Notes under the pieces: model-generated
What the model saw: only the letters and a program-made list of their open reading frames with translations
Databases searched by the model: none
Told to the model about the DNA's origin: nothing
Translations under genes and position numbers: made by a program
Shown here: piece after piece, positions 1,590-35,659 of the stretch
Position numbering within the stretch: position 1 is the stretch's first letter
Layout: every line of letters starts with the position of its first letter
Source of the DNA: Candidatus Latescibacterota bacterium
GTDB lineage: Bacteria > Latescibacterota > UBA2968 > UBA8231
Direction: 5' to 3'
NCBI GenBank assembly: GCA_965217585.1
Contig: OZ244561.1
Location: 4,672,001 to 4,736,000, forward strand
Length of the DNA: 64,000 nt

Positions 1590-1903
1590 ATAAGGCGAGG
1601 CCGCGCGACATCGCCGTGGATGGCCAGGCCGGCGAGTTGGTCATTGCGTGGAGCGATGGCCGCGAGAGCCGTTACAGCTTGGAGGGGTTGCGGCGCGAGT
1701 GCCCTTGCGCCCACTGCCGGGAACTGCGCGATACGAGCGAAGGGGGGTTGACGCTCTTGCAGCCCGAGGCAGTGTCGGCCACGGCCGAGGTGCGGGGGGT
1801 TAGCTACGTCGGGCGCTACGGCATTCGCATCGAATGGGCCGACGGGCATGATCACGGCATTTATACGTTTGAGTTTTTTCGCGCGATAGACGCGGGCGGA
1901 TGA
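1586..1903 (+). CDS. DUF971 / GBBH-like N-terminal domain protein
   Basis: LRRECPCAHC and VGRYGIRIEWADGHDHGIY motifs; start overlaps rimO stop. Confidence 0.85.
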   Translation: MNKARPRDIAVDGQAGELVIAWSDGRESRYSLEGLRRECPCAHCRELRDTSEGGLTLLQPEAVSATAEVRGVSYVGRYGIRIEWADGHDHGIYTFEFFRAIDAGG

Positions 1904-1930
1904 GGCAAGGCGGGTTTTGGGAAGCGAGCG

Positions 1931-1957
1931 ACCACCCCTGACAGGGTGGTTTTTTTT
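1931..1957 (+). terminator. Rho-independent terminator
   Basis: ACCACCC-ctgaca-GGGTGGT stem followed by a T run, downstream of the aroB-rimO-DUF971 unit. Confidence 0.75.
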
Positions 1958-13000: not shown

Positions 13001-13254
13001 TCTTTCCCCTAGTTTCGATGACGAAAACGACGACGCGACCAACGGCCTATCTCGCCGATCTGCAATAGGTGGGGGACTGAGGAGCGGTCGAGCTTGGCTG
13101 ACGGCGGCGGGCGCTCAGGTGAGCCGCCGAGAAGTCGCGATAGACGTTCAGTGCCAAAATCCGCGTAGTGAAGTCGCCTATCGAAGCCACGTCATTGGAA
13201 ACTGCATGTCATACCTCCAACGTCGCCAAACAGATCAACGATGGAGATTGATAC

Positions 13255-13805: not shown

Positions 13806-15079
13806 TCACCTTTCGTCGAGGTAGTCGCTGAACCAGAGGCCGCCCAGCGGCAATCCTTCTTCGACCATGTTGTTCACAATAGGATCGTCGCTTGCTCGGC
13901 GAATCGTTGAAAAGCCATCCTCGCCTTTTTCCAAAATCCAGACTTCTTGCGGCTCTAACGCATTGACGAAGTATGGCTGATGCGTCGTGACAAAAACTTG
14001 CGAGTTGCCTCTGCGTCCACTGGCGTGTTCGCGGAATTCGTTGGCGAGGGTCTCCAAAAGCTTGTGATACAGGCCGTTTTCCGGCTCTTCGATGCAGAGG
14101 AACGGAGGGGGTGTCGGGTCTTCGAGTAGCAATAAGTAGGCGAATACCTTGAGCGTCCCATCGGACACTTGCTGAGCATAGAACGGCTCTTGGAAGCCTT
14201 TGTCGTTGAACCTAAGCAGCAACCGACCATCATTGGTTCTTTCCGTGTCGATCTTGTGTATGCCCGGAATTTTCTCGGCGATCTTCTTTAGCATAGCCTG
14301 AAAACGCCGTGGATGTTCGCGCTCCATGAATTGCACGACGTTGCCGAGATTGTCACCATGGATGTTGAGACGGCTCTGTGGACCAGCCAACGGTAGGCTG
14401 CGGGCTGCGTCGGGGGTGAAGTAACTGAGATACCATCCCTCGATGAAGCGGCGAAAAGCGGAAATTCGCGGGTATTGTTTCAAGGCACCGAGCGTGGCAA
14501 TGCCGAGCTTGCGCTGGTCTTCCAATTCGATGAGTTCTGCATCTTTGAATTCTTTTTCTTTTCCTATCGATTGTATCCACTCGGAAATATCGAAACCTTC
14601 TGATGTTTCATCGATTTGCTTACCCGTCTGGTTTCCCTTCCAAACCGTGCCTAAGCCTGCTGTAAGAGAAAGGAAAAAGAGTGATCGGTCATTTCCCAAG
14701 TCTTCTTTCATTGTTTCTTCAGCCACATAAGGACGCCCGAAATTGTTTGCCGCAATGGCGATCTCGTAAGTATAGGCTGGGCATTTTCTTCTTCTTTGTA
14801 ATGTACCTCGAACTCGATAGGACCTGTTTCCCCCTGCGTCCGCATCCTCTCGAACCCACCGCGCCCGCGTGCGTCGCAGGCTTCCTCAACGCCGAGTTTC
14901 AGGGCGTCGGCAAGGAAACCGAACGCATCGAACAGGGCGCTCTTTCCCACGCCGTTTTTGCCGATCACCGCTGTCATGGGAGTAAGCGGTTGGCTATTCG
15001 GTTGGTTCCACAGACGTCCCAGCGTAACGTCCTTGAGCACCTTGAAGTTTTTTATTCGCAAGCCTTCTATCTTAGCCAT
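13806..15079 (-). pseudogene. AAA_21/ABC-type ATPase, split by a 1-bp frameshift near 14770
   Basis: Walker A GKNGVGKS in 14708-15079; SDGT signature, IEEPENGLY and TTHQP in 13806-14726; one added base restores PITYEIAI. Confidence 0.8.
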
Positions 15080-17853: not shown

Positions 17854-18663
17854 TTAGCCGTACAGTGAGTAGAAGATGGCACCGCCGAGCAGGATGCGAT
17901 AGACGGCAAACGAATGGGTACCGTGGCGCTGGAGGAAGCGGAGGAGGAAGCCGATGGACAGGTAGCCGCTAACCGCGGCAGCGAGGATCCCCAGCCCCAA
18001 ACTCAGCAGCCCAGCGCCGCCTAGGCCCCCTTCGAGCAGTGCGAATAGTTGTAGGAGGCCGCTGGCGCCGATGGCCGGCAAGCCGAGCAAAAAGGAGAAG
18101 CGGGCGGCGTCTGCGCGCTGGAGACCCGCAAAAAGCCCGCCCATGATGGTTGAACCAGACCGCGAACACCCGGGAATCAGGGCGAGGGCTTGGCACAGGC
18201 CAATGAACTGGATTGACCAGAAGCCGAGGTCCTGCATGGTGCGCTCGCGTCGCCCCACGCGCTCGGCCAGCATCAAGAACAGCGCGAGGACGATCAGGCT
18301 CGCGGCGATGAGGGGAAGCTGGCGCGCCTCGGTCTCGATAAAGTCGCGTCCCCCGAGGCCGAGTACGGCAATGGGCACGGTGCCCACGGCAATGGACCAC
18401 GCCATGCGGCAGTCTGGGCTGTGGTTGAAGTTGCGGTGCATCACCCCTTGCAGCGCGGCGACGACCAGCCTTTTGATATCGGCTGTGAAGTACGCGAATA
18501 CGGCCGCGAGCGTCCCCAGTTGGATCACCGCGGAAAACGCCGTGCCTGGATCGTCCCAGCCGAGAAAATGGGGCACCACCCGCAGGTGGGCGGTACTACT
18601 GATGGGCAGGAATTCAGTCAGGCCTTGGACTATGCCTAAGATGAGTGCTTGCAGCCAATCCAT
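17854..18663 (-). CDS. uppP: Undecaprenyl-diphosphate phosphatase
   Basis: GIVQGLTEFLPISSTAHL, PGCSRSGST, AARFSFLL. Confidence 0.95.
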   Translation of the reverse strand: MDWLQALILGIVQGLTEFLPISSTAHLRVVPHFLGWDDPGTAFSAVIQLGTLAAVFAYFTADIKRLVVAALQGVMHRNFNHSPDCRMAWSIAVGTVPIAVLGLGGRDFIETEARQLPLIAASLIVLALFLMLAERVGRRERTMQDLGFWSIQFIGLCQALALIPGCSRSGSTIMGGLFAGLQRADAARFSFLLGLPAIGASGLLQLFALLEGGLGGAGLLSLGLGILAAAVSGYLSIGFLLRFLQRHGTHSFAVYRILLGGAIFYSLYG

Positions 18664-18715
18664 GGGAGGGCTTAAGCTAACCGCCGCCGCCTGCCCGGAC
18701 AAGGACGGCGCACCC

Positions 18716-18745
18716 TTGACAAAAACGCGGGCCGGTGTGCAGAAT
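18716..18745 (+). promoter_or_regulatory. Putative sigma70 promoter for the dehydratase-ackA unit
   Basis: TTGACA, 18-bp spacer, CAGAAT, upstream of RBS AAGGAG. Confidence 0.45.
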
Positions 18746-18779
18746 ACCCACTGATTTTCACCGACAACAAGGAGACCTC

Positions 18780-19979
18780 ATGCCCGTTCTGATTGAAGAC
18801 GTCCAAACTATCCTCACCCAACCGGCCGGCTCCCGCTTGGTCATCGTCAAGATCGTCACCTCGGACGACGGCCTGTACGGACTTGGTTGCGCGACCTTTA
18901 CCCAGCGCTTCCACGCCGTGCATACTGCCATCGAACAGCACCTCAAGCCCTTCCTCATCGGCCGTGACGTGGATCGCATTGAGGAGACTTGGCAGATGGC
19001 CATGGTCAACAGTTATTGGCGCAACGGCCCGGTGCTCAACAACGCCATCTCTGGAGTTGATCAGGCGCTGTGGGACATCAAAGGCAAGCGGGCGGGGATG
19101 CCGGTGTACCAATTGCTGGGCGGCAAGTGCCGCGAAGGGGCGGCTGTGTACGGCCATGCAGGCGGCGAGACGCCCGAGGCCGTCGTCGATAGCATCCTCC
19201 AGTTTGAGGAGCAAGGCTATCGCTACATCCGCTGCCAAATGGGCGGCTACGGCGGCAAGGCATCGACCTTGGTTAAGCCCGAAGGGGCGCCCGAAGGCGC
19301 GTACTACAACCGCAAAGAGTACATGATGAACCACCTGCGGATGTTCGAGCACATTCGCGCAGAACTGGGTTTTGAGGTGGAGCTGCTGCACGACATCCAC
19401 GAGCGGTTGCACCCGATTGAGGCGGTGGGCTTTGCCAAGGACGTGGAGGAGTTCAAGCTGTTTTTCTTGGAGGACGCTCTGGCGCCCGAAGACATCGAGT
19501 GGTTCCGCCACATCCGCCAGCAGTGCGCGACGCCGCAGGCCATGGGCGAGCTATTCAATCACCCGCACGAGTGGACGCCGCTCATCGAGGGACGGCTCAT
19601 TGACTTCATGCGCATGCACGTCAGCCAGATGGGCGGGATCACGCCGGCGCGCAATGTGGCGGCATTCGGGCAGATGTACGGGGTGCGCACGGCTTGGCAC
19701 GGTCCGGGCGATACCTCGCCGGTGGGGCACGCGGCCAACCTACACTTGGACCTGTGGGCACCCAACTTTGGGATCCAAGAGTGGTGTCGGTTCCCGGAAC
19801 ACGTGTACGAGATGTTTCCGGGGCTGCCCGAGGTGCGCAACGGGTACATGTATCCGGGCGACGGCCCTGGGTTGGGGATCGACATCGACGAGGACTTGGC
19901 GGCCAAGTATCCTTGTGCGAACGAGGTCATTGGGTGGACGCAGACGCGCTTGCCCGACGGCAGCCCAGCGCGGCCCTAA
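18780..19979 (+). CDS. Mannonate dehydratase / RspA-like enolase superfamily protein
   Basis: YWRNGPV, ALWDIKGK, LLHDIHERL, FLED, MGE, WHGPGD. Confidence 0.9.
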   Translation: MPVLIEDVQTILTQPAGSRLVIVKIVTSDDGLYGLGCATFTQRFHAVHTAIEQHLKPFLIGRDVDRIEETWQMAMVNSYWRNGPVLNNAISGVDQALWDIKGKRAGMPVYQLLGGKCREGAAVYGHAGGETPEAVVDSILQFEEQGYRYIRCQMGGYGGKASTLVKPEGAPEGAYYNRKEYMMNHLRMFEHIRAELGFEVELLHDIHERLHPIEAVGFAKDVEEFKLFFLEDALAPEDIEWFRHIRQQCATPQAMGELFNHPHEWTPLIEGRLIDFMRMHVSQMGGITPARNVAAFGQMYGVRTAWHGPGDTSPVGHAANLHLDLWAPNFGIQEWCRFPEHVYEMFPGLPEVRNGYMYPGDGPGLGIDIDEDLAAKYPCANEVIGWTQTRLPDGSPARP

Positions 19980-19980
19980 G

Positions 19981-21165
19981 ATGAAAGTCCTAGTTTCCAA
20001 TCTCGGCAGTACCTCGTTTAAGTACAAGGTCTTTGCCATGCCCGAAGAAGTGGTTTTGGCGCGCGGTGGCATGGATCGGATTGGGGGTCAAGGCTCGGTA
20101 CACACCTTCCAGATCGGCGGGGCCGACGAGGTTGAGCAGGCCGTAGATTTGCCCGACCACGCCAGTGCGATTGACGAGGCCCTCACGCGCTTGGCCGAGG
20201 GCGGGGTGTTGGCGTCGGTGGAGGAGCTGGACGCGGTGGGATTTAAGGCCGTTCACGCGCGCGCGATTTCCGGGGTGGTCGAGCTCGACGAGGATGTGGT
20301 GGGGCGGATGGAGGATTTTTATCCGCTGGCCCCGGCGCACAATCCCGCGTACGTGGCGGCGATTCGGCAGTTTGCGCGGGTGGCCCCCAAGGCGCGGCGG
20401 GTCGGGTGCTTTGAGACGGCCTTTCACGGGGCGATGCCGCAGCGGCGCAAAATGTACGCAGTGCCCTACGCTTGGTATGAGCAATACGGCATCCAGCGCT
20501 ACGGCTTCCACGGGGCCAGCCACCGCTATGCCGCTGAGGAGGTCGTGGAACTGGAAGGGCGCGCCGACCTCAAACACGTCAACATGCACTTGGGCGGGTC
20601 TTCGTCGCTGTGCGCGGTAAAAGATGGAGTCTCACAGGGGGCGTCGCACGGGCTAAGCCCGCAGGGCGGCCTGCCGCAGAACAACCGCATCGGCGACTTG
20701 GACCCGTACGCGCTGGACTTGGTCATGCGCAACGAGGATCGCCCGTGGGCCGAGGTGCTGGAGCAGTGCGCCAGCGAGGGCGGCCTGTTGGGGATATGCG
20801 GGCACAGCGACATGCGCGATATTGAAGCGGGTGCGGAAAATGGCGACGAGCGCTGTGCCTTGGCCATAGCCGTGCTGGCGACGTCGGCGCGCGACTGGCT
20901 GGGGGCTTTTGCGGTGGAGATGGGTGGGCTGGACGCGATCAGTTTTACCGGCGGCATTGGCGAGTACTCGGCTGCCGTGCGCGGCGAAATCCTGCGCGAC
21001 TTGGAATTTTTGGGGGTGGTGATGGATGCGACTAAAAATGAGAGCGTGCAAGGCGAGGGCAGCCTGCACACCGCGGCGAGCCGAGTGCCCATTTACGTGC
21101 TGCGCACCGACGAGGAACTGGTGGTGGCGCGGCAGACTTGTGAATTTTTGAGAGCTATCCCCTAG
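19981..21165 (+). CDS. ackA: Acetate/propionate kinase (divergent)
   Basis: NLGSTSFKY, LAPAHNP, RYGFHGASH, HLGGSSS, FTGGIGE, TDEE. Confidence 0.88.
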   Translation: MKVLVSNLGSTSFKYKVFAMPEEVVLARGGMDRIGGQGSVHTFQIGGADEVEQAVDLPDHASAIDEALTRLAEGGVLASVEELDAVGFKAVHARAISGVVELDEDVVGRMEDFYPLAPAHNPAYVAAIRQFARVAPKARRVGCFETAFHGAMPQRRKMYAVPYAWYEQYGIQRYGFHGASHRYAAEEVVELEGRADLKHVNMHLGGSSSLCAVKDGVSQGASHGLSPQGGLPQNNRIGDLDPYALDLVMRNEDRPWAEVLEQCASEGGLLGICGHSDMRDIEAGAENGDERCALAIAVLATSARDWLGAFAVEMGGLDAISFTGGIGEYSAAVRGEILRDLEFLGVVMDATKNESVQGEGSLHTAASRVPIYVLRTDEELVVARQTCEFLRAIP

Positions 21166-21225
21166 CCTCCCTTCTGTGTCTGTGGATGGTGGGAGCGCAG
21201 GTGTGATTAGGGCAGTATTATTAGG

Positions 21226-21315
21226 GCGGCCTACTGGCTGGGCATGGCCATGCACCGCAAGTATCCGCGCCGGGTACTGACCGCACTACGCTTTTTGCTG
21301 AAGACCCCAATTTGA
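21226..21315 (+). pseudogene. 3' remnant of a lost gene
   Basis: AAYWLGMAMHRKYPRRVLTALRFLLKTPI*; preceded by an in-frame stop at 21208 and no RBS. Confidence 0.4.
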
Positions 21316-21324
21316 CAAGATCTA

Positions 21325-21382
21325 CTCTTTCCAGCAAATTTGTTGGCAACAGGGTTGTTGGCAACAAATTTGCTGGAAAGAG
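21325..21382 (+). promoter_or_regulatory. Long inverted repeat overlapping the promoter/RBS of the ATPase operon
   Basis: CTCTTTCCAGCAAATTTGTTG...CAACAAATTTGCTGGAAAGAG, 21-bp perfect arms; TTGACA at 21312-21317. Confidence 0.8.
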
Positions 21383-21392
21383 AGGTGTGACC

Positions 21393-22670
21393 ATGAGGCT
21401 CAGGAAGGCAGGCGGGAACTGGGTTGATGATGATCGGTTCTTCGACCGGGATGCCGAGCTCGAAGCACTCACCGAGCGGGTAAGGGACGGAACCCATACA
21501 CTGCTGACCGCGCAACGGCGGATGGGCAAGACGAGCTTGGTTAGGGAGTTACTGCGTCGCCTAAAGGACGAGGACAGCTTCGAGACGATCTTCGTTGATC
21601 TGGAGGGTGCCCGCACTCCAGCAGACGCCATCGCCGAGATCGGAGTTCGGTCGAGGTCGGTGCAGGGCGTACAGCGCAAGCTCAAATCTTGGCTCGCCAA
21701 CACTCTACGCGAGGCCGTTGATCGAGTCGATACGCTAGCCGTTTCCGAGGTGCAGGTGAAACTGCGCGCTGGAATCGACGCCGGAAACTGGCGGCAGAAG
21801 GGAGACGAGGTCTTTGCAGCCTTGGCTGAGAACGACCGGCCAGTGGTGCTCGCTATCGACGAGTTGCCGATTCTCGTCAATCGTCTGCTCAAGGGGGACG
21901 ACTACTGCATCACGCCGGAGCGAAGGCAGGCAGTGGATGAGTTCCTGAGTTGGCTACGCAAGAACGGTCAAGAACATCGAGGCCGGGTCTGCCTGATCCT
22001 CTCAGGCAGCGTGAGCTTGGAGCCGATTCTGCAACAGGCTGGGCTCAGCGCCCACGCGAACATCTTTTCTCCCTTCGATCTAAAGCCTTGGGAAGAGGAG
22101 ACTGCCAGTGCCTGCCTCGCCGCGCTGGCAGGCACTTATGACATCGAACTTCCACTCACCGTCCGCCAAGACATGTGCCGCCGGCTGCGGTGTCAGATTC
22201 CCCACCATGTGCAGCAGTTTTTCGATAATCTCCACGAAGATCTGCGCCGGGCCAACCGGCGGGAAGCCTCACTAGAAGATGTAGATCGCGTATACACTAC
22301 CGAGATGCTGGGTGTCCGGGGACAGATGGATCTAGAGCACTACGAGAGCCGGCTGCGGATGGTTCTCGGGGACAAAGGTTATCTGGCCGCCTTGGATATA
22401 TTGACCGAGGCCGCGGTCAACTACGGATTGCTGCATAGCGATGCCATTGACCAATATTATGAGTACTTCCAGGCTGATGCCGTCCCGGTCTCTACCAAGG
22501 ACATTCTTAGTGTGCTCGAACATGACGGCTATTTGGCGAGACAAGGTGACGACTACCGGTTCGTATCGGGCCTACTCGAAGCTTGGTGGCGCGCCCGGCA
22601 CGGCCGGCACTTCGTCCCCATAGCCCGCCGCCAAGCCAAAACGAGGAACAGCGGTAGCCATGACCACTAG
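21393..22670 (+). CDS. STAND-type / archaeal-ATPase-like P-loop NTPase
   Basis: FFDRDAE, Walker A AQRRMGKTS, Walker B LAIDE, SGS sensor, C-terminal LEHDGYL winged-helix-like region. Confidence 0.85.
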   Translation: MRLRKAGGNWVDDDRFFDRDAELEALTERVRDGTHTLLTAQRRMGKTSLVRELLRRLKDEDSFETIFVDLEGARTPADAIAEIGVRSRSVQGVQRKLKSWLANTLREAVDRVDTLAVSEVQVKLRAGIDAGNWRQKGDEVFAALAENDRPVVLAIDELPILVNRLLKGDDYCITPERRQAVDEFLSWLRKNGQEHRGRVCLILSGSVSLEPILQQAGLSAHANIFSPFDLKPWEEETASACLAALAGTYDIELPLTVRQDMCRRLRCQIPHHVQQFFDNLHEDLRRANRREASLEDVDRVYTTEMLGVRGQMDLEHYESRLRMVLGDKGYLAALDILTEAAVNYGLLHSDAIDQYYEYFQADAVPVSTKDILSVLEHDGYLARQGDDYRFVSGLLEAWWRARHGRHFVPIARRQAKTRNSGSHDH

Positions 22671-25191
22671 AAAGTACAACCCGGGGTTTCTCACCGACGA
22701 CGAACTGGTGGTCTCGTTCTGTGTGCGGACGGGCGAGTTTGAATCAATCGTTGACATGCTGCGTGAATGCACTGGAAGCGCCAATCCGCATCAAATTGCG
22801 ATCGGCCCACGCGGCAGCGGGAAAACGAGCCTGCTGCTGCGTGTCGCGGTCGAGGTGAGCCGGGATGCCGAATTGCGATCCGGCTTCTTTCCGATCGTCT
22901 TCGCCGAGGAAAGCTACGAAGTCGCCTCCGCTGGCGAGTTCTGGCTGGAATGTCTGTCCCGCTTGGCCGACCAGATGCCTCGCGGGGAGGATGTTCCCGA
23001 CCTGCACCGAACTTACGAACACTTGCGCACCATTCAGGACGACCAAATTCTTGCTGAACTCTGCCTCGGTACTCTGCTGGACTTCTCGGACCGGGAGGGC
23101 AAGCGGCTCGTGCTGATGGTTGAGAATTTGAACATGATGTTCAGGGACATGGCAGACTCCGAGGCGGGCTGGCGGCTGCGGAAGATTCTCCAGACCGAGC
23201 CGCGTATCATCCTACTGGCGAGTGCGACCAGCCGCTTCGACGAGATCGACAATCCGGACCACGCCCTGTACGACCTGTTCCGGGTACTGCTGCTGCACCC
23301 GCTCGACACCAAGGAATGCGCCGCGCTGTGGGAAGCGGTGTCCGGCAAATGCCCTCCGCCTGAGACCATTCGATCCCTAGAGATTCTCACCGGTGGCAGT
23401 CCGCGTCTGATCGCCATCGTGGCTCGCTTCGGAGCGGGGCGTTCCTTTCCCGAACTCATGGCCGAACTACTCGACCTCGTCGATGACCATACGGAGTACT
23501 TCAAGAGCCATATCGAATCGCTACCACCGCAGGAGCGGCGGGTCTATCTCGCGCTCGCCGACCTGTGGAAGCCGGCGACCACGAAGGAGATCTCGGCCCG
23601 CACCCGGTTGGAGACGAGCAAGTGTAGTGCCCAACTCACCCGCCTCATCGAACGGGGCGTCGTTCAGGTTATGGGGGGTACTGCCCGGCGCAAACAGTAT
23701 TACCTGACCGAGCGCCTCTACAACATCTACTATCTGCTGCGGCGCTCCCGCGGACAGGATTCCCTAATCAAGGCCCTCATCCAATTCATGGAGTCGTACT
23801 ACTCTGGTACTGAACTGAGAGACATCGGTGCTCATATCGCCCGCGAGGCAGGAAGTTTCGGCGGGGAGATGCAATCGCTGGCCCGGATCGCACTTGCACA
23901 GATGATGAAGTTACCGGCACTGGACGGGCATCGCGAAGAACTACTTGCGATGATTCCCGAAGGTTTCACGGAGGTTTTCGAGCGGGATTCGGTACCTTCC
24001 AATGTGGAGAGCAAGACGTCGGTCGGCGTGGAACAGTATCCCCGTCGGGAGGACCAAGGTAGCGAGGATACGAACGAACAGGCTGAGTTTCTGGCCGCGA
24101 AGGAGATCTTCGACGAAGCGGTTGCTCTGACGAATCAGGATCGGACAGAAGAAGCACTGTCCGCCTTCGACGAAGTGGTGCATCGATTCGCCGAGAGCGA
24201 AATGCCGATGGTCTCCCAACTAGTCGCACTGGCTGGACTCACACTCAACTACTTAGATCGTCCAGAGGACGCGCTGACCGCCTATGACGAAGTAGTACGC
24301 CGATTCGGCGATAGTAAGACGCCAGACCTTCTCGGATTAGTTGCGATGGCGCTTCGCGGCAAAGGGTGTGTACTCTATGACTTAGACCGGCTAGAGGATG
24401 CGCTGGCCACCTTCGACGAGGTGGTGCGCCGATTCGGCGATAGCGAGATGCCGGTCTTTCTCGAATCGGTCGCGTTCGCCCTCTTTGGCAAAGGGTGTGC
24501 ACTCGACGATTTAGACCGGTCGGAGGACGCGCTGACCACCTATGGCGAAGTAGTGCGCCGATTCGGCGACAGCGAGATGCCAGCCCTTCTCGAAGCAGTT
24601 GCAAGGTCGCTCGTCAGCAAAGGAGTCATACTTGACAGACTGAATCGTCCAGAGGACGCGCTGGCCACTTGTGACGAGGTAGTGCGCCGATTCGGTGATA
24701 GCGAATCTCCTGCGTTTCGTATGGTGACTGAGTGCGCGCTTCTTATAAAAGCGAATTCTGAGATAGAGTGTCGGCGGTACAAGGCAGCCATCGAGTCGGC
24801 AGGTCGGGTAATTGATATGTGCCACACGGAATCGTCGGAGAACCAATGGCTGGCTTATCTGATCAGGGCAAGGGCGACCCTCGCAAGCGGAGACCTATCC
24901 GCGAGCGAGCGAGACATTGCGGAGATCTTGACGATTCTTCCCGATCTCGACTCCCTTCCGAAGGAGAGCCTTGATGCACTGATGGCGTTCAGCATCGAGA
25001 TCGGGCTGGAGCGCATGGTCGATCTTATTCAGGCGTCGCCGTCGGCAAATCTTCTGTTGCCGCTTACGACGGCTTTGGAACAGGAACTCGGACACGAGCC
25101 CCGGGTGGCGCTTGAGGTCGCGGAAGTTGCCGAGGATATCCGGAAGGATTTGGCGAGGCTGAGGGAAACGCAGAGTGATGGCGTCGAGTAA
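22660..25191 (+). CDS. STAND-like ATPase + winged helix + TPR repeat protein
   Basis: GPRGSGKTS, LMVENL (degenerate Walker B), GGSPRL, wHTH ATTKEISARTRLETSKCSAQLTRL, 43-aa TPR-like repeats. Confidence 0.85.
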   Translation: MTTRKYNPGFLTDDELVVSFCVRTGEFESIVDMLRECTGSANPHQIAIGPRGSGKTSLLLRVAVEVSRDAELRSGFFPIVFAEESYEVASAGEFWLECLSRLADQMPRGEDVPDLHRTYEHLRTIQDDQILAELCLGTLLDFSDREGKRLVLMVENLNMMFRDMADSEAGWRLRKILQTEPRIILLASATSRFDEIDNPDHALYDLFRVLLLHPLDTKECAALWEAVSGKCPPPETIRSLEILTGGSPRLIAIVARFGAGRSFPELMAELLDLVDDHTEYFKSHIESLPPQERRVYLALADLWKPATTKEISARTRLETSKCSAQLTRLIERGVVQVMGGTARRKQYYLTERLYNIYYLLRRSRGQDSLIKALIQFMESYYSGTELRDIGAHIAREAGSFGGEMQSLARIALAQMMKLPALDGHREELLAMIPEGFTEVFERDSVPSNVESKTSVGVEQYPRREDQGSEDTNEQAEFLAAKEIFDEAVALTNQDRTEEALSAFDEVVHRFAESEMPMVSQLVALAGLTLNYLDRPEDALTAYDEVVRRFGDSKTPDLLGLVAMALRGKGCVLYDLDRLEDALATFDEVVRRFGDSEMPVFLESVAFALFGKGCALDDLDRSEDALTTYGEVVRRFGDSEMPALLEAVARSLVSKGVILDRLNRPEDALATCDEVVRRFGDSESPAFRMVTECALLIKANSEIECRRYKAAIESAGRVIDMCHTESSENQWLAYLIRARATLASGDLSASERDIAEILTILPDLDSLPKESLDALMAFSIEIGLERMVDLIQASPSANLLLPLTTALEQELGHEPRVALEVAEVAEDIRKDLARLRETQSDGVE
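24148..24705 (+). repeat. Tandem 129-bp coding repeats (43-aa TPR-like units)
   Basis: GAGGA(C/T)GCGCTG units at 24265, 24394, 24523 and 24652; shorter 117-bp first unit at 24148. Confidence 0.9.
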
Positions 25192-25214
25192 CTTAGGACG
25201 AAGGAGGTGTACTT

Positions 25215-26510
25215 GTGAAACTGAAATCTGTGGAGATTGAAAACTATCGCGCCATTGAAAAGCTCAAGCTGCCACTCGATCCGTCGCTGACGGTGTTGCA
25301 CGGCGACAATGGGTACGGCAAGACGAGCGTTCTGAGTGCGATTGCGGTGGGATTGGGGGATGAGGCTATGCTCGGACCGTTTCTCGATGTCTTCATTTAT
25401 TTTTGCGAAGAGGATTGGCGCGAAGGCGCAGGGAATCCGCTGGTATCGCTCACTTCAATGGACGGAAAGGCGTGTGAGCGACCAGGGACTAGGTCGGTGG
25501 TTAAGCGGAAGAAGGCGGAGGAAGAGATGTCGGTCCACCGGGAGAATCTGGAGGAGGCGCTGGTCGAGGATAGCCATGCAGATAACAACGATATGCCGAT
25601 CTGTGTCCTTTATGGTACTGATCGGACGGTCTCAGATGTGCCAGAATCGGTGGTATCTCCGCGCCATTTACCGCGCCGGGTTTCTCGGTTAGATGCGCTG
25701 AAAGGGGCGCTTTCTGCTCGCACGGATTTTGAGGACCTCTTTGCTTGGTTCTATTTCAAGGAGGACGAGGAATTGAGGGAACAGAAGGAACGCCGCGACT
25801 TCGATTATCAGCTAAAAGAGGTATCTGCGGTGCGCCAAGCGATCTCGTCCATGCTTCCGGAAGTGTCCGACCCTCGTACCGAGTCGAATCCTCCCCGTTT
25901 TATAGTGTCCCAGAAATCGGAGCAAGGACAAGTAGAAAAGCTCCCACTCGACCAGCTAAGTGGGGGCTATCGCATTATGCTGGCGCTGGCGGCCGATCTG
26001 GCACGGCGGATGGTGCAGGGCAATCCGCACTTGGACGACCCACTTGAATCCGAGGCGGTTGTCCTGATTGACGAGGTGGAACTGCATCTGCATCCAAAAT
26101 GGCAGCAACGCATCTTGGACGATCTGCAGCGGACGTTCCCGAATGCGCAGTTTATCGTCTCTACTCACAGCCCGCAGGTGCTGACTACGGTCGAGCCGCA
26201 GCGCATTGTGGAACTTGCTCGAGAAGGCGACCGCATTGTTGCGGGGGCACCGGCAGGGGCGACGTATGGGGCCGAGGCGGGGGATGTGCTTTCCGTGGTG
26301 ATGGGCGTAAAAGAACGGCCCGAGAACGAGTTCACAAAAGCACTGGAACAATACCGGTATCTGATCAGGGAGGGACAGTGGGAGTCCGAAGAAGCCTTGG
26401 CTCTGCGAGCGAGTCTGGAGAGCATGTCTCCCTACGATCCGGCCCTCGATCGAGCTGACCTTGAAATCCGACGACGCAAGCTGTTTAAGCAGCGGGCCGA
26501 GTCGCCATGA
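25215..26510 (+). CDS. ABC/AAA_21 ATPase, PtuA-like (Septu / retron type I effector)
   Basis: GDNGYGKT, LSGGYR, LIDEVELHLHPKWQQ, STHSP; RBS AGGAGG; followed by an HNH gene. Confidence 0.85.
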   Translation: MKLKSVEIENYRAIEKLKLPLDPSLTVLHGDNGYGKTSVLSAIAVGLGDEAMLGPFLDVFIYFCEEDWREGAGNPLVSLTSMDGKACERPGTRSVVKRKKAEEEMSVHRENLEEALVEDSHADNNDMPICVLYGTDRTVSDVPESVVSPRHLPRRVSRLDALKGALSARTDFEDLFAWFYFKEDEELREQKERRDFDYQLKEVSAVRQAISSMLPEVSDPRTESNPPRFIVSQKSEQGQVEKLPLDQLSGGYRIMLALAADLARRMVQGNPHLDDPLESEAVVLIDEVELHLHPKWQQRILDDLQRTFPNAQFIVSTHSPQVLTTVEPQRIVELAREGDRIVAGAPAGATYGAEAGDVLSVVMGVKERPENEFTKALEQYRYLIREGQWESEEALALRASLESMSPYDPALDRADLEIRRRKLFKQRAESP

Positions 26511-26989
26511 AGAGGGTTCGCGAATTGAGTAACCCGACTCTTGGCCTTGACGAATACCTCGGTTGTATGGGTGAAGACGCGGATTGGGACGAATTTCGCT
26601 CTCACAATTCGGGGGCGTCGTACCGCGAACTTAGAGGTGCCCTAACCCAAAACCAACACGGACTCTGCGCTTACTGCGAGATTGCGATCAGAGGATGGCG
26701 TCGTCAGATTGAGCATGTGATCCCGCAGAGCGACGCCAAACTGGGCAAAGCGAAGGCCCTCGACATAGCCAACATGGTCGCCTGCTGTATGGGTGGAACC
26801 GTGCAGGATGATGAGGATCGTTATCGCAGTCCCGTGGGACATAACACGAGCTGTGGTCAGGCAAAGGGAAGTCAGAACGACGAAAATTTTATTGACCCTC
26901 GGATACTACCCGCGCTGCCCTCGCTTATGAGGGTAATTGACAACGGGCTGATTGAAGCAGACGAAAATGAGTACATAAAAAAACGATAG
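26507..26989 (+). CDS. HNH endonuclease, PtuB/TIGR02646-like, probably C-terminally truncated
   Basis: QHGLCAYCE, IEHVIPQS, NMVACC, SCGQAKG; ends abruptly at ENEYIKKR. Confidence 0.75.
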   Translation: MKRVRELSNPTLGLDEYLGCMGEDADWDEFRSHNSGASYRELRGALTQNQHGLCAYCEIAIRGWRRQIEHVIPQSDAKLGKAKALDIANMVACCMGGTVQDDEDRYRSPVGHNTSCGQAKGSQNDENFIDPRILPALPSLMRVIDNGLIEADENEYIKKR

Positions 26990-27003
26990 ATTATCTGTGG
27001 AGG

Positions 27004-27735
27004 ATGAAACTCATGTTCGGAACTATTCGCAACTCGTCCGGCGAAGAGTTGGACTACACTTTTCACGCCGGCACGGAGGGGTCGCGGCACATTGCCGTCT
27101 TGGGGCACGGCGTGACCGGCAACAAGGACCGCCCCTTTGTAGTAGCGCTCGCCGAGGGGCTAGCGGCTGCTGGCATCCACGCGCTGCGCTTTTCCTTTGC
27201 CGGTAACGGCGCGTCCGAAGGCCGCTTTGCCGACTCGACGATCTCCAAAGAGGTCGAAGATCTTGGCGCGGTGCTCAGCGCCTTGGACGGCTACTCGGTC
27301 TGCTATGTCGGCCACAGCATGGGAGGGGCGGTCGGCGTCTTGCGCACCAGCCGCGACGAGCGCATCCGTCTGCTCGTCTCTTTGGCCGGCATGGTGCATA
27401 CTCGCGCCTTTGCCGAGCGCGAGTTCGGCGAGGAGGTGCCCGACGAGGGCTGCATGTGGGACGAGCCAGACTGCCCGCTCTCGCAAGCGTACATGGACGA
27501 CATGGCCCAGATCGACACCGTGGTGGAACGCGGGGCCGAGATTGCGGTACCTTGGCTGTTGATCCACGGCAGCGAGGACGACGTGGTGCCGATTGCCAAC
27601 TCGCATGACATCCTCGCCCAAGCCAGCGACACCGCCGAACTCGTCGTCATCGACGGAGCCGACCACGTCTTTAGCGAGCACGCGCAAGTCATGGTCGAAA
27701 AGATCGTCGGTTGGCTACAAGGGCAGTGGGCATAA
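27004..27735 (+). CDS. Alpha/beta hydrolase
   Basis: HGVTG, GHSMG nucleophile elbow, HGSEDDVVP, GADH. Confidence 0.9.
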   Translation: MKLMFGTIRNSSGEELDYTFHAGTEGSRHIAVLGHGVTGNKDRPFVVALAEGLAAAGIHALRFSFAGNGASEGRFADSTISKEVEDLGAVLSALDGYSVCYVGHSMGGAVGVLRTSRDERIRLLVSLAGMVHTRAFAEREFGEEVPDEGCMWDEPDCPLSQAYMDDMAQIDTVVERGAEIAVPWLLIHGSEDDVVPIANSHDILAQASDTAELVVIDGADHVFSEHAQVMVEKIVGWLQGQWA

Positions 27736-27840
27736 GCATCCCCGCAGGTCGCAGCCTACCAGAGATAGCGCGCAACTCCTATCTTTAAAGGAGTACGCCC
27801 GGCAATCCCGCCGGCCATGTGCGCTCTGCCAAGCTAAGCC

Positions 27841-30699
27841 ATGCAAAAGAAAACCCCGAGTCGCCTGAGTGCTCGCCAGCAACGGACCTTGCTGGCGGTC
27901 GTGGTCCTAGGCGTCTTCATGGTCGCCGATACGCTCTATCTGCTGACCAACCGGCTGGCCGACGTCTTGGACTCGGGTTATTTCGCGGTCACTGACATTT
28001 CCCTGCCCAAGTTTTACCAGGGCATGGTGCTGTCGCATACGGGCGTCGGTCTGGTGCTGGTGGTGTTGGCGATGGGCTTTGTGGCTTGGCACCTACCGGC
28101 CGTGTGGCGCAGAAGCCGCAAGAGGGCCATCCTCACCGGCATCGCCACGCTGACGCTGGGCATCTTACTGGCCATCAGCGGGCTGTTCATCCTCAGCGCG
28201 GCGAGCAACCGCGGCAATCCGGTGGCCTACTGGAGCCACGTGGCCGCGGCGGTTTTAGTCCCTCTCTTTTACTTGGCGCACCGCCGCCTCTCGCTGTGGA
28301 AGCCCTCCGCGCGGAGCTATCGCATAGTGCCCGTAGCGGTGGTTGGGCTGTTGGCGCTAGCCGTGGTGCTACACGGGTTGACCTATAGCGGCGAGCAGTA
28401 CACGCAGGCGGCCGAGCAGGCATTCGCCGCTGGCAAGCACACCGGCCCGGGTTCCAAGGCGCGGCAGGTCGCCGACTTTGCCCCAGACGACTTCGTACCC
28501 GCCAATTTTGTCCCGGCTGAAAGCCCCTTTTTCCCGGCGGCTACTACGACTACGACCGGCGACATTCTGCCCTCGCGGATCATCACTCGCGGCGATCTTT
28601 CGCAGCCGGAGAAACTTGCCGGGGACCTCGACGAGTACGGCTTTGTGGTCAACGAGCCGATTGGCTCGGAGACTTGCGCCCGTTGCCACGCGGCGGTCGT
28701 CGAACAGTGGGCGACATCGGCGCATCGCTTTGCCTCGTTTAACAACCCCTTCTACGAGGCGACGATCAACGACATGCGCAGCAACTCGACCGAGAGCAAC
28801 GCGGAGGTCGCTGCCCATATTGCCTATTACAAGGACTTGGCGGGGGAGGAGGGCAAAATCAAGTCCAAGTGGTGCTCGGGTTGCCACGATCCGGCGCTGA
28901 TGCTGGCGGGTAAAATGACCGAGGAGATCGACCGCGCCTCGCCCCAGGCCCAAGCCGGGCTGACCTGCCTGGGCTGCCACGCCATCGACGAAATTCACGA
29001 TCAGACCGGCAACGGCAACTACAACATCGCCGACGAGCAGGAGGATCCCTATCTGTTCGCCAATGCCAAAGAAGGGGCTGGCCGCTTCGTGCACGACACT
29101 GCGCTGAAGGCGCGGCCCATCGTCCACAAAAAGCAGATGCTCAAGCCCTTTTTCCGCACCTCTGAGTTTTGCGCCACCTGCCACAAGGTCAGCCTCGACT
29201 CGCGCGTCAATGGCTACCGCTGGCTGCGCGGCCAAGACGAATATGACAATTGGCACGACAGCGGCGTGGCGCTCAACGCCTCCAGGACTTTCTACCTGCC
29301 CGGTGTCAAGCGGGTCTGCCAGGACTGCCACATGCCGCTGGAGGAAGCGGTCGCCGGTGACGTGTCGGCGCGGGATGGCTACGTCAAGTCGCACCGCTTT
29401 TTGGCGGTCAACACGGCCCTGCCCTTCATCCGCGGCGACGAGGAGACCATCGCGCGGATCGAGGAATTTCTGCAAGACGAAAAACTCAGCGTCGATGTAT
29501 TCGCGCTGCACCACCAAGAAGAAGCGCACTACGCGCTGGACAAGAGCCAGCCAGCGCTGGTGCCCGGCGGCGAGTACGCATTCGACGTGGTGGTGCGCAA
29601 CAAGGGCGTCGGGCATACCTTCCCGGGCGGAACCAACGATTCCAACGAGGGCTGGCTAGAGGTCTCGGTGGTGGGAGACGACGACGTGGTGCTGGCTTTG
29701 AACGGGGCGGTGCAAGACGACGGGCACGTCGATTTGGGGGCGCATTTTTACAAGGCGCTGATGGTCGATGCAAAAGGCCAAGCCATCCATCGGCGCAACG
29801 CCCAGGACATCGTCACGGCCGTGTACGTGCGCACCATTGGTCCGGGTACGGCGGATGTAGCTCACTACAGCTTCGAGGTGCCCGCAGACTACGCGGGGCG
29901 CAAGCTGACGCTGCGGGCGCGGCTGCTGTGGCGCAAGTTCGACCGCGCCTATACGGAATTTGCCTTCAACAGCAACCGCCAAGGCTTCCGCCGCTTCGAC
30001 CAAGTGCCGGAGTTGCCGGTAACTGAGATCGCCCGCAGCGAAGTGGAGCTAGCGGTGGGAGGGTCGTCCGCGGCGGGTGCGCCGGATGCGGGCGACTGGA
30101 TGCGCTTCAACGACTATGGCATCGGCTTGCTGCTCCAAGACGATACCCAAGGTGCCGCACGGGCCTTTGCGACGGTGGAACAGCTAGCGCCCAAGCGCCT
30201 AGACGGCTGCCGCAACTTGGCTAGGGTTGCGGTGCGCGACGGTCACTTAGAGCGGGCCTACGAGCACTTGGGGGACTGCGAGACGCTGGTCACCGGCGAC
30301 GGGCAGACGGCTTGGGTTTGGGGCGTGGTGTTACAAGAGGACGGTCGCTACGAGGCGGCGGCGCAGGCGTATCGCCGGGTGTTGCGCGACTTTCCCGAGG
30401 ATCGGGCTTCATGGCGCAACTTGGGCCGGGTGCTCTATCTCGACGGCCGCTACGAGGAGGCTTTGGAGGCCCTCGACGGCGTGCTGGCTATTGATCCGGA
30501 AGACCGCGTCGCCCACTACCACCGAATGCTCTGCCTGCGCGCCCTTAGCCGCGAGGACGAGGCCCTCGTCGCCGAGCAGGCTTACCAGTACCACCAGATC
30601 GACGAGTCGGCTCAAGAGCTGACGCGCCGCTACCGGCTAGAGCATCCGCACGACAACCGCGAGGCACTCAAAATCCACGTTCATCCGTTGGGGAATTGA
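27841..30699 (+). CDS. Membrane-anchored pentaheme cytochrome c with C-terminal TPR
   Basis: N-terminal TM helices with His; five CxxCH motifs (CARCH, CSGCH, CLGCH, CATCH, CQDCH); GHTFPGG; TPRs. Confidence 0.88.
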   Translation: MQKKTPSRLSARQQRTLLAVVVLGVFMVADTLYLLTNRLADVLDSGYFAVTDISLPKFYQGMVLSHTGVGLVLVVLAMGFVAWHLPAVWRRSRKRAILTGIATLTLGILLAISGLFILSAASNRGNPVAYWSHVAAAVLVPLFYLAHRRLSLWKPSARSYRIVPVAVVGLLALAVVLHGLTYSGEQYTQAAEQAFAAGKHTGPGSKARQVADFAPDDFVPANFVPAESPFFPAATTTTTGDILPSRIITRGDLSQPEKLAGDLDEYGFVVNEPIGSETCARCHAAVVEQWATSAHRFASFNNPFYEATINDMRSNSTESNAEVAAHIAYYKDLAGEEGKIKSKWCSGCHDPALMLAGKMTEEIDRASPQAQAGLTCLGCHAIDEIHDQTGNGNYNIADEQEDPYLFANAKEGAGRFVHDTALKARPIVHKKQMLKPFFRTSEFCATCHKVSLDSRVNGYRWLRGQDEYDNWHDSGVALNASRTFYLPGVKRVCQDCHMPLEEAVAGDVSARDGYVKSHRFLAVNTALPFIRGDEETIARIEEFLQDEKLSVDVFALHHQEEAHYALDKSQPALVPGGEYAFDVVVRNKGVGHTFPGGTNDSNEGWLEVSVVGDDDVVLALNGAVQDDGHVDLGAHFYKALMVDAKGQAIHRRNAQDIVTAVYVRTIGPGTADVAHYSFEVPADYAGRKLTLRARLLWRKFDRAYTEFAFNSNRQGFRRFDQVPELPVTEIARSEVELAVGGSSAAGAPDAGDWMRFNDYGIGLLLQDDTQGAARAFATVEQLAPKRLDGCRNLARVAVRDGHLERAYEHLGDCETLVTGDGQTAWVWGVVLQEDGRYEAAAQAYRRVLRDFPEDRASWRNLGRVLYLDGRYEEALEALDGVLAIDPEDRVAHYHRMLCLRALSREDEALVAEQAYQYHQIDESAQELTRRYRLEHPHDNREALKIHVHPLGN

Positions 30700-34276: not shown

Positions 34277-35659
34277 CTATTCTTCTTGGCGGCAAAAGCG
34301 CAGCGCGTACAGGTCGGCGTCGTACATGACAAAGCGCAGACGCACTGGCCGACCGGCCAATGGGCCTACTTCAGCGCCCGATTCCCACTGCACAGCTAAG
34401 TCCGTCTGATCCTGAAAAAGCTCGGGCGAATCGGCCAGCGCTAGGCCGGGGAAAGGCTTGCCGTTTTCGTCCTGAATTTCGACGCGGATGCTGCCGGCTG
34501 CGGAGGTGGACATATTGAGCCGCAACTGATCGCCGCTAAAGATCAGGGGCTTGGTGGTGAACTGGCCGCCGCGATAGGGAGCTTGCACCGAGGCGAAACC
34601 ATCCAAGCGCATCGTCAGGCGGCGGATGCAGGATGTGGGCATGCGCCAGTGCTCGGTCATGTAGAGCGACAGTTCGGCGGGTCCGGTACGCAGCAGGCCG
34701 CGCATGATGTACACGCTGCGGTCGTGCCAATTGCCGGGGTTGGGGCCTGGGCGCACGAAGGCTTCCGGGAAGAGCCTGTCGAAGTGGAGGCCGTCGTGGC
34801 TGCTCATTAGCACGCCGTCGTTGACCCCGGGATACGGCCAACCGGGCGTGGGGCTGCGGCTGTTGACAAAGCGCGAGGGGAACATCAAGTAGAGGCCGGG
34901 GGAACGCTCGTAGGGAACGCAGGAATTGGTGTACATGTGCTCCAGCGGCGCATCGCCGGTGTCGATGGCTGCTAGCGGACTCCAGTGGACAAAGTCGTCG
35001 GAGGTGGCGCGGCGGATCCAGCGCACGCCTCCCTTGAAGGCGCGAGTGGCACCGTGGCCGAGTTCGCCATCGCAGCGAATGCCTCGGGTGTACATGATGT
35101 ACTGGCCGGTCCACGGATCGCGGAAGGCGATATTGTGCGAGTCGAATGGGCCTTCGGTCTGCACAGGTTCGGGGTTTTTGCGCCAGTGCAAGCCGTCGGG
35201 CGAGGTCGCCGTGTAAATGGCACCGCGCCGGCCGATGCCTTTGTAACGCTCTTGAGCCGGGGCTGCTGGATCGAGGAACGGGGAGAAGTTGACTAGGTTG
35301 GGATCGTCGAGAACTAGGTTATTGGCCGTCGAGCCTTGGAAGTCGATGAGGCCCAGCTCTGGTTTGTGCCAAGTGATGCCGTCGCTGCTTTCGGCATAGG
35401 CGGTGCAGGCCCTGTCGGTTTTGTTGTTGTCGGCGTGGGGGATGCAGCGGTACCAGGCGCGGAAGCGGTCGCCGTCTTTGAAGAGCACGGCGTAGGCGAG
35501 GCCGCCTTCTTCCCAAGGATGGTCAATGCGCACTGCGGCGTTGCGGCGCGCGGGCTGGTGGAGGACTTGGCGGGCGTCTTGTAGCTCGTCGATGAGGCGG
35601 CGGTCGAGCAGTAGTTGGCGATTGGAGCCGATGGGGATGGGGGTGTTTGATTGGTTCAT
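34277..35659 (-). CDS. Five-bladed beta-propeller glycosidase-like protein (GH32/43-like)
   Basis: YAESSDGITWHKPELG, SPDGLHW, FDSHN, SHDGLHF, RLDGFAS, ADLYAL. Confidence 0.75.
   Translation of the reverse strand: MNQSNTPIPIGSNRQLLLDRRLIDELQDARQVLHQPARRNAAVRIDHPWEEGGLAYAVLFKDGDRFRAWYRCIPHADNNKTDRACTAYAESSDGITWHKPELGLIDFQGSTANNLVLDDPNLVNFSPFLDPAAPAQERYKGIGRRGAIYTATSPDGLHWRKNPEPVQTEGPFDSHNIAFRDPWTGQYIMYTRGIRCDGELGHGATRAFKGGVRWIRRATSDDFVHWSPLAAIDTGDAPLEHMYTNSCVPYERSPGLYLMFPSRFVNSRSPTPGWPYPGVNDGVLMSSHDGLHFDRLFPEAFVRPGPNPGNWHDRSVYIMRGLLRTGPAELSLYMTEHWRMPTSCIRRLTMRLDGFASVQAPYRGGQFTTKPLIFSGDQLRLNMSTSAAGSIRVEIQDENGKPFPGLALADSPELFQDQTDLAVQWESGAEVGPLAGRPVRLRFVMYDADLYALRFCRQEE

Follow-up and report, generated by a model that had tools for sequence, protein, structure and literature searches.

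Two probably independent gene modules, a two-ATPase cassette and a truncated Septu operon, at a variable chromosomal site in Candidatus Latescibacterota

Gene content of the locus

The sequence analysed here, referred to as the window, is a 64,000-nucleotide stretch of the genome of a Candidatus Latescibacterota bacterium (GenBank assembly GCA_965217585.1, contig OZ244561.1, positions 4,672,001 to 4,736,000 of the forward strand). Our subject is a block of four genes within it: genes A and B, which encode two different ATPases and are together called the pair, and the Septu genes ptuA and ptuB. The block is bordered by ackA and by a gene for an alpha/beta hydrolase, and is preceded by an operator-like array of repeats (Table 1). 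Genes A and B overlap by 11 nt, B and ptuA are separated by 23 nt, and ptuA and ptuB overlap in the sequence ATGA. The G+C content of the four genes (0.55-0.59) is lower than that of the flanks (0.61-0.65).

An initial annotation, made from the sequence by a model, had described these genes as co-oriented, overlapping or closely spaced, and as lying between ackA and a hydrolase gene. The list of open reading frames bears this out, with all four on the forward strand, and Pfam identifies the flanking products as acetate kinase and an alpha/beta hydrolase. The proposed domains, namely an ATPase, a second ATPase with winged helix-turn-helix and tetratricopeptide repeats (TPR), an ABC ATPase and an HNH nuclease, agree with Pfam and PADLOC. 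It had also pointed to the lack of a retron reverse transcriptase, and rightly so: the 7.3-Mb genome has a single RVT_1 match, about 208 kb outside the window, and Rfam returned no match in positions 18000-30000.

Table 1. Features of the four-gene block and its borders, with positions counted from the first nucleotide of the window.
Feature	Position	Strand	Length or family match	Description
ackA (acetate kinase)	19984-21165	+	Pfam Acetate_kinase 1.9e-90	left hotspot border
operator-like repeat array	21325-21382	+		in front of gene A; 58-nt inverted repeat
gene A	21393-22670	+	425 aa	ORC/Cdc6-like AAA+ ATPase, C-terminal winged helix (PF01637 ATPase_2 type)
gene B	22660-25191	+	843 aa	STAND NTPase, winged helix, disordered linker, TPR solenoid, conserved C-terminal tail
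ptuA	25215-26510	+	431 aa	full-length Septu ABC/SMC-type ATPase
ptuB remnant	26507-26989	+	160 aa	HNH core retained, C-terminal ~90 residues deleted
alpha/beta hydrolase gene	27004-27735	+	Pfam Hydrolase_4 + Abhydrolase_1	right hotspot border

Two ATPases with P-loop domains

Gene A passes the gathering score of the Pfam family ATPase_2 (38.7 bits against a cut-off of 33.2) and also matches AAA_16 and AAA_22. Its Walker A motif contains GKT and its Walker B motif the canonical DE, and K46, D156 and E157 are among the residues that are invariant in its homologues. The AlphaFold2 model, with a mean predicted local distance difference test score (pLDDT) of 94.5, consists of an AAA+ core, a lid and a C-terminal winged helix, and no effector domain is present in it. 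The top Foldseek matches of this model are the archaeal ATPase_2 proteins 2fna (SSO1545) and 2qen (PABY2304), with template modelling (TM) scores of 0.56-0.68 and E values of about 1e-10, followed by Orc1/Cdc6 and CED-4. Gene A thus has both the ATPase_2 score and the fold in common with the 'archaeal ATPase' family PF01637, but it is bacterial and is always paired with gene B. We know of no function for SSO1545 or PABY2304. The resemblance to Orc1/Cdc6 is one of fold.

Gene B is a more composite protein. It matches Pfam AAA_16 and a TrmB-type winged helix-turn-helix, each slightly below the cut-off, as well as several TPR families (TPR_16 at 1.4e-15); the Pfam nSTAND models also score below their cut-offs, and NCBIfam yields TPR noise only. 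Walker A occupies residues 49-56, and nothing precedes the NTPase domain. The AlphaFold2 model (pLDDT 81.6) comprises the NTPase, helical and winged-helix parts, a disordered linker at residues 442-466 and, past residue 469, an all-helical solenoid that continues to the end. Its best Foldseek match, over the NTPase plus TPR parts, is 6mfv, whose entry title names it as a STAND protein with tetratricopeptide repeat; the similarity is low (TM score 0.27-0.35, 11% identity), and Orc/Cdc6, SAMD9, Avs3 and Apaf-1 rank below it.

The Walker B motif of gene B was initially noted as changed to VEN. This reading stands (LVLMVEN), and the variant proves to be conserved, with E155 in 78 of 78 homologues and N156 in 77 of 78. 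The altered motif is not a product of decay. In a profile comparison its EN aligns with the canonical DE of gene A; BLASTP finds no match between the two proteins, and their P-loop domains are linked by profile comparison only. The further remark that neither STAND-like protein shows an effector domain agrees with the AlphaFold2 models, which in neither protein leave space for a nuclease, protease, TIR or comparable domain. A look at longer homologues turned up two proteins; both are fusions of A and B, and no effector fusion is found among them.

The length of B ranges from about 450 to 1570 aa across loci. The N-terminal 390 residues and the last ~80 are conserved, and the variation lies in the TPR middle. 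In the window this part contains a tandem repeat of 129 nt (43 aa) in 3.5 copies, at positions 24251-24704. Contigs from two metagenome runs have joints that skip 126, 258 and 513 nt of this repeat (about 1, 2 and 4 units), which indicates that the number of repeats varies in natural populations.

The window's genome contains a second, decayed copy of the cassette elsewhere (G000:C1:1401591-1402778; locus L084, 8425-10121). About 30 residues of A remain there, ahead of a B paralogue of 516 aa whose N-terminal 430 residues show 41-44% identity.

A repeat array in front of gene A

The array upstream of gene A is composed of four units spaced at 15 nt, of which the central two are exact copies of GTTGGCAAC (21342-21350 and 21357-21365). 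The inverted repeat that covers the array ends 10 nt ahead of the ATG of gene A, and a TTGACA hexamer is located at 21312-21317. The motif GTTGSCAAC, scored with up to 1 mismatch, occurs within 160 nt upstream of A in 79 of the 80 loci of the survey described below, and at least two copies are found in 61 of them. Its density is 12 per kb upstream of A, compared with 0.24 per kb elsewhere in these loci, and successive copies keep the 15-nt spacing in 66 of 76 pairs. Most of the TTGACA-like matches ahead of A share nucleotides with the operator units. A sigma-70 scan gave 0 promoters, and terminator-like sites numbered 4 where 4.7 were expected.

Distribution of the pair

A scan for gene A, restricted to one genome per species, yielded 80 loci at 57-89% identity, with flanks of up to 9 kb. 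These loci come from metagenome-assembled genomes of Latescibacterota, Binatia, Gamma- and Alphaproteobacteria, Gemmatimonadota, Acidobacteriota, Chloroflexota, Spirochaetia, Opitutales and Rhodothermales, a spread of at least eight phyla or classes. Relatives are numerous: 2482 of 8000 scored candidates reach E <= 0.001, the best 120 at 72-97% identity, and 244 clusters (50% identity) reach E <= 1e-30. Gene B is directly downstream of A in 79 of the 80 loci, the exception (L075) being a truncated A, and B homology begins -1 to 27 nt from the stop of A in those 70 of the 79 for which a script could place the stop. Natural fusions of A and B exist and are rare. Within the phylum, gene A is present in 35 of 168 genomes, and in 7 of the 30 other genomes of the genus. 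A and B form a self-contained, patchily distributed cassette.

The pair had been left unassigned to any named system, and our searches agree with this. In PADLOC both genes have weak matches only (mad8 and PDC-S01, 5.7e-6 and weaker), gene A has no match in NCBIfam, and a sequence search of the PDB with A and B returned nothing below E 0.5. Matches in the protein atlas are confined to clusters named 'ATP-binding protein'. No description of the pair was found in the literature searched, a search of which supplementary tables were not part. Taken together, the sequence data indicate that A+B is a real, widespread and undescribed two-ATPase cassette.

A truncated Septu operon

The ptuA product matches PtuA of PADLOC at 4.6e-114, Pfam AAA_15 at 1.1e-23 and AAA_21 at 8.3e-20, and its full-length orthologues in the phylum are 68-88% identical. 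That of ptuB matches PADLOC PtuB at 7.7e-35, the match being confined to positions 1-164 of a 260-position profile. It reaches Pfam HNH at 0.0063 only, and passes the NCBIfam model TIGR02646, 'retron system putative HNH endonuclease', with 59.1 bits against a cut-off of 52.15. The N-terminal Cys and His blocks align with those of relatives. Both components of Septu are recognizable, and their orthologues at the same site in congeners are stand-alone two-gene systems.

The PtuB of the window differs from these in its length of 160 aa, compared with 236-283 aa in 14 of 16 relatives and 245-258 aa in the 11 of 11 relatives examined for a full-length protein. Alignment of the DNA with locus L006 reveals a 344-bp deletion in the window, with its joint at about 26960/26961. 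The deletion took the last ~90 codons and part of the spacer behind them, and the reading frame now ends in what was intergenic DNA. The lost residues correspond to the PtuA-binding domain: according to the excerpted text of PMC12819146, the helical C-terminal domain of PtuB binds the C-terminal extension of the PtuA dimer. An excerpt of PMC13376987 adds that toxicity is lost when the predicted PtuA-PtuB interface is mutated, and that neither PtuA alone nor PtuB alone is toxic. Because the docking domain is gone, the PtuA-PtuB complex should not assemble here, and the Septu copy of the window is a decayed remnant that is probably inactive.

Other Septu copies next to the pair in this phylum are also broken. 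In G164 (locus L020) ptuA has an internal stop, and only fragments are left in L010 and L011. Genes A and B are intact in these three loci, as they are in the window.

The Septu allele of the window is a mosaic. Its PtuA is 88% identical to that of G134 and 74-78% identical to those of G144, G140 and G146; the N-terminus of its PtuB is 92-97% identical to the latter three genomes and 54% to G134. These opposed identities point to recombination within the ptuAB operon.

Variation at the ackA-hydrolase site

Both border genes are present in all 31 genomes of the genus, so the contents of this site can be compared directly. Gaps were computed from the coordinates of the border genes, and the contents were taken from gene A, PtuA and locus inspections. 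In 10 of the 31 genomes the gap is 700 bp or less, and one of these (G139) holds a fragment of PtuA. Septu is present alone in 7, with six gaps of about 2.2 kb and one (G118) that is split over two contigs, and together with further genes in 2. One of the latter, G146, has a 15-kb gap with HmaC, NsnABC, HmaB and a helicase in addition to Septu, and the other, G145, contains an HmaC fragment, a DUF7680 protein and a three-gene cassette along with Septu. The pair alone is found in 4 genomes (G123, G124, G126, G129), and the pair plus Septu in 2, namely that of the window (G000) and G134. The remaining 6 carry other cargo of 1.1-2.9 kb, as determined by inspection (G119, G131, G135, G137) or from the length of the gap (G127, G120). 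Each of the two modules therefore persists intact without the other at one chromosomal site.

The junctions suggest how these arrangements arose. In the genomes with Septu only, ptuA starts 56 nt past ackA. In the window and in L006, the same ptuA ribosome-binding site and GTG start codon follow the stop codon of B, which indicates that the cassette entered the interval separating the ackA 3' end from the ptuA ribosome-binding site. In two of the loci with the pair alone (L004, L009), a ptuA ribosome-binding site and start codon are still found after B, joined to DNA that normally lies past ptuB. From this scar it follows that ptuAB was deleted there and the pair retained.

Some details of the site were noted in passing. 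The last codons of ackA read ...FLRAIP* in the pair genomes (window 21140-21165) and ...FLSVGTREA*-like in Septu-only loci (L166, L168, L170, L172), so that the insertion replaced the 3' end of ackA. The right ends of the ptuB deletion in the window (26961-27003) and of the ptuAB deletions in L004 (~12590-12650) and L009 (~12950-13110) fall within a few tens of bases of one another. They are located just ahead of the conserved stretch CATAAAA...CGATAG, which precedes the hydrolase gene, and this place may be a recombination boundary of the hotspot.

The three-gene cassette mentioned above for G145 occurs at this site in three loci: L177 (G135) at 152-2571, L178 (G137) at 178-2606 and L181 (G145) at 1490-3870. 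It encodes proteins of about 240, 204 and 369 aa. The largest has a metallo-beta-lactamase fold with a weak match to LmuA, and the two smaller ones have no family match. The cassette is a candidate for another unnamed defence system.

Relationship between the pair and Septu

The initial annotation proposed that the TPR sensor and its partner ATPase control PtuAB in place of the reverse transcriptase and multicopy single-stranded DNA (msDNA) of a retron. The four genes would then be a single system, in which B and A restrain or trigger PtuAB in response to a phage protein. The common orientation, tight spacing and lack of a predicted terminator are in keeping with such a system, and retrons are a precedent for the use of PtuAB by another sensor (excerpted text of PMC12819146). 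The analogy is with type I-A retrons (Ec78/Eco7), where PtuAB is the effector under an added sensor. The locus differs from these in several respects. The reverse transcriptase and the msr/msd non-coding RNA next to PtuAB are missing, and the window proteins score below the NCBIfam cut-offs for the retron types (PtuA 282 against 500 bits, PtuB 68 against 150). The genes added to PtuAB are also separable from it.

Separability was assessed from both sides. A PtuA or PtuB match (E <= 1e-5) within the flanks is missing in 69 of the 80 pair loci; both genes are found in nine of the other eleven, and only PtuA fragments in the remaining two. In the reverse direction, none of 80 metagenome PtuA loci (27-86% identity) carries A or B, and in one of these (L085) a PtuA that is 86% identical directly follows ackA. 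Within the phylum, PtuA-like genes are present in 38 of 168 genomes, and a comparison of coordinates shows PtuA adjoining A only in G000, G134 and G164, with a fragment in G166. Where the two do occur together, order and distance vary: ptuAB is directly upstream of the operator in L013, L017, L018, L020, L033 and L035, immediately after B in L006 and in the window, and 2-4 kb downstream of B in L018, L032 and L034.

The two modules also appear to have different histories. Loci L034 and L035 are 88% identical in A and 56% in PtuA, and L018 and L035 are 77% and 80% identical, respectively. The correlation of the pairwise identities, a crude measure, is r = 0.5. Since the identities do not track each other, the modules have assorted independently.

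Adjacency of the pair and PtuAB is therefore rare, an outcome that the initial annotation had itself named as refuting its proposal, and these counts oppose the idea that PtuAB is under the control of the two ATPases. The same is true of the hotspot, where Septu occurs without the pair in nine congeners and the pair without Septu in four, the two inspected among the latter bearing the deletion scar, and of the window itself, where ptuB is truncated and A and B are intact. We consider it very improbable that the four genes constitute one system.

The reading we prefer, with a probability of roughly 75%, is that of two modules, independent of each other, which are neighbours in a defence hotspot of the genus. 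Some observations weigh against it. With 11 of 80 loci, PtuAB ranks with the most frequent individual neighbours of the pair. In 6 loci, which belong to Binatia, Gamma- and Alphaproteobacteria and Latescibacterota, the arrangement is ptuA-ptuB-[operator]-A-B, with an estimated 107-388 nt between the two modules, and this recurrence across classes is a hint of joint transfer or of synergy. In the window and L006, B and ptuA are likely to be co-transcribed, as they are 23 nt apart and no terminator is predicted, and one contig from an RNA library bridges B and ptuA, although such libraries may contain DNA and a single transcript is not proven by it. Contigs from RNA libraries at 90-97% likeness cover A and B in two studies and pieces of ptuA and ptuB in one, which is no proof of expression. 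Furthermore, the defence role of A+B is argued from neighbourhood and fold alone, and since no effector was found, the mechanism of the pair is one that we infer.

Genomic setting of the pair

A gene of a PADLOC-type defence system is located within 2.4 kb of the pair in 29 of 81 loci (window included). The number falls to 25 when lone methylases and a RecD-like match are left out, and to 20 without Septu. These neighbours include Hma, Wadjet, Menshen, Dsr1, Juk, a TIR protein, type IIG and type IV restriction, AbiE, Mokosh-like and Dpd-like genes and several candidate systems. Gene calling was crude (longest non-overlapping open reading frames), and the loci are related to one another. According to the abstract of a review, anti-phage genes make up about 1.5% of bacterial genes (PMC13434031); at ~3.7 scored open reading frames per locus, a defence neighbour would be met by chance in about 5% of loci, an arithmetic estimate made with no matched control. 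We regard a defence or conflict role for the pair as slightly favoured. Of the claim that the block is a candidate defence operon, the defence setting of the pair is upheld by the 29 loci and the single four-gene system is not.

Among known immune proteins, those of the Avs type resemble gene B in design. Common to both are an NTPase of the STAND type, a winged helix and, at the C-terminus, a sensor of long and variable repeats; the fold matches of B include Avs3 and Apaf-1, and the pair is often found in defence islands. Avs proteins are tripartite and have an N-terminal effector in the excerpted text of PMC13581612, an excerpt in which Septu is not mentioned. Such an effector is missing from both B and A. 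Gene B is also set apart by being always accompanied by a second ATPase gene and a conserved operator.

The combination of winged helices in both proteins, a conserved operator and no effector domain might also be read as a regulatory device. A+B would then be a non-immune, MalT-like switch or signalling pair that senses a ligand and regulates itself, and perhaps distant genes too, and its location in defence islands would merely reflect where accessory DNA accumulates. The closest solved fold of B, that of a STAND protein with TPR (6mfv), fits this, as do the 52 of 81 loci that have no PADLOC-type neighbour within 2.4 kb and the many neighbours that are housekeeping genes. STAND regulators of the MalT type have a C-terminal LuxR-type DNA-binding output domain; by Pfam, there is none in B, whose C-terminus consists of TPR-like helices. 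To our knowledge, a partner ATPase and an operator are not features of MalT. The patchy distribution speaks against such a switch, as do the 57-89% identity of A across phyla and the hypervariable sensor repeats of B. In 25-29 of 81 loci the pair is beside defence genes, which belong to more than ten systems; its site in the genus otherwise holds Septu, Hma or Menshen; and the sole conserved operator found is the pair's own. Thus, both the switch and the idea that its location is incidental seem unlikely to us.

A role in the upkeep of mobile DNA is less probable still. The ORC/Cdc6-like fold of A, the resemblance of the repeat array to iterons and a distribution that fits transfer between phyla would suit a maintenance or addiction module of a mobile element, acting in replication, partition or exclusion. 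Against this, no integrase, transposase or replication gene recurs beside the pair in the 81 loci, no neighbour family other than A and B is found in more than about 10 of them, and in four congeners the cassette stands alone between two housekeeping genes. Gene A has no PHROG family, and a scan of viral contigs, limited to one peptide pattern, detected no relative. We find this explanation hard to credit.

Possible mode of action

In the preferred reading of two independent modules, Septu would have been at this site first, and the A+B cassette would have been inserted just upstream of the ptuA ribosome-binding site. The cassette would function independently of PtuAB, and PtuAB independently of the cassette. 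Septu itself would be decaying here, the 344-bp deletion having removed the PtuB domain that docks onto PtuA.

As for the pair, the variable TPR array of B might bind a trigger, probably a phage protein. Gene B would bind nucleotide and hardly hydrolyse it, because of the conserved EN in Walker B, and gene A with its canonical DE would be the hydrolysing partner or motor. One or both of the winged helices may bind the GTTGSCAAC repeats at their 15-bp spacing and so autoregulate the operon. As no enzymatic effector domain is seen in the model of either protein, the output of the pair might be on DNA or transcription.

One tentative form of this model is that A+B is a two-component, effector-less, NLR-like immune module with its output on DNA. 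A hydrolysis-dead STAND-TPR sensor could conceivably recruit the ORC/Cdc6-like ATPase, which would clamp DNA or block replication or transcription. It is also possible, if doubtful, that the pair is a portable sensor that acts in synergy with whichever effector system shares its hotspot, Septu being among the most frequent.

If the pair is truly an immune sensor, it would show that a bacterial NLR-like protein can work with no fused effector, by way of a partner ATPase and an operator. The value of the result is mostly corrective: the Septu copy of the window is a remnant, and the tight spacing of defence genes in a hotspot is no evidence for one system. The site between ackA and the hydrolase gene is a natural experiment, in which a short gap, Septu, the pair, both, or other systems occupy the same position, and this series supplies intact alleles.

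Other defence-related genes in the window

Two further genes of the window match defence systems. At 35656-37275, on the reverse strand, there is a fused PARIS-type gene (PADLOC AriAB 4e-149; Pfam AAA_21 and DUF4435). An AAA_21 ATPase gene at 13806-14726, also on the reverse strand, matches PADLOC HEC-01A at 4.6e-129 over profile positions 120-402 of 406 only. It appears to be truncated at the N-terminus, and its homologue in L006 is 435 aa long.

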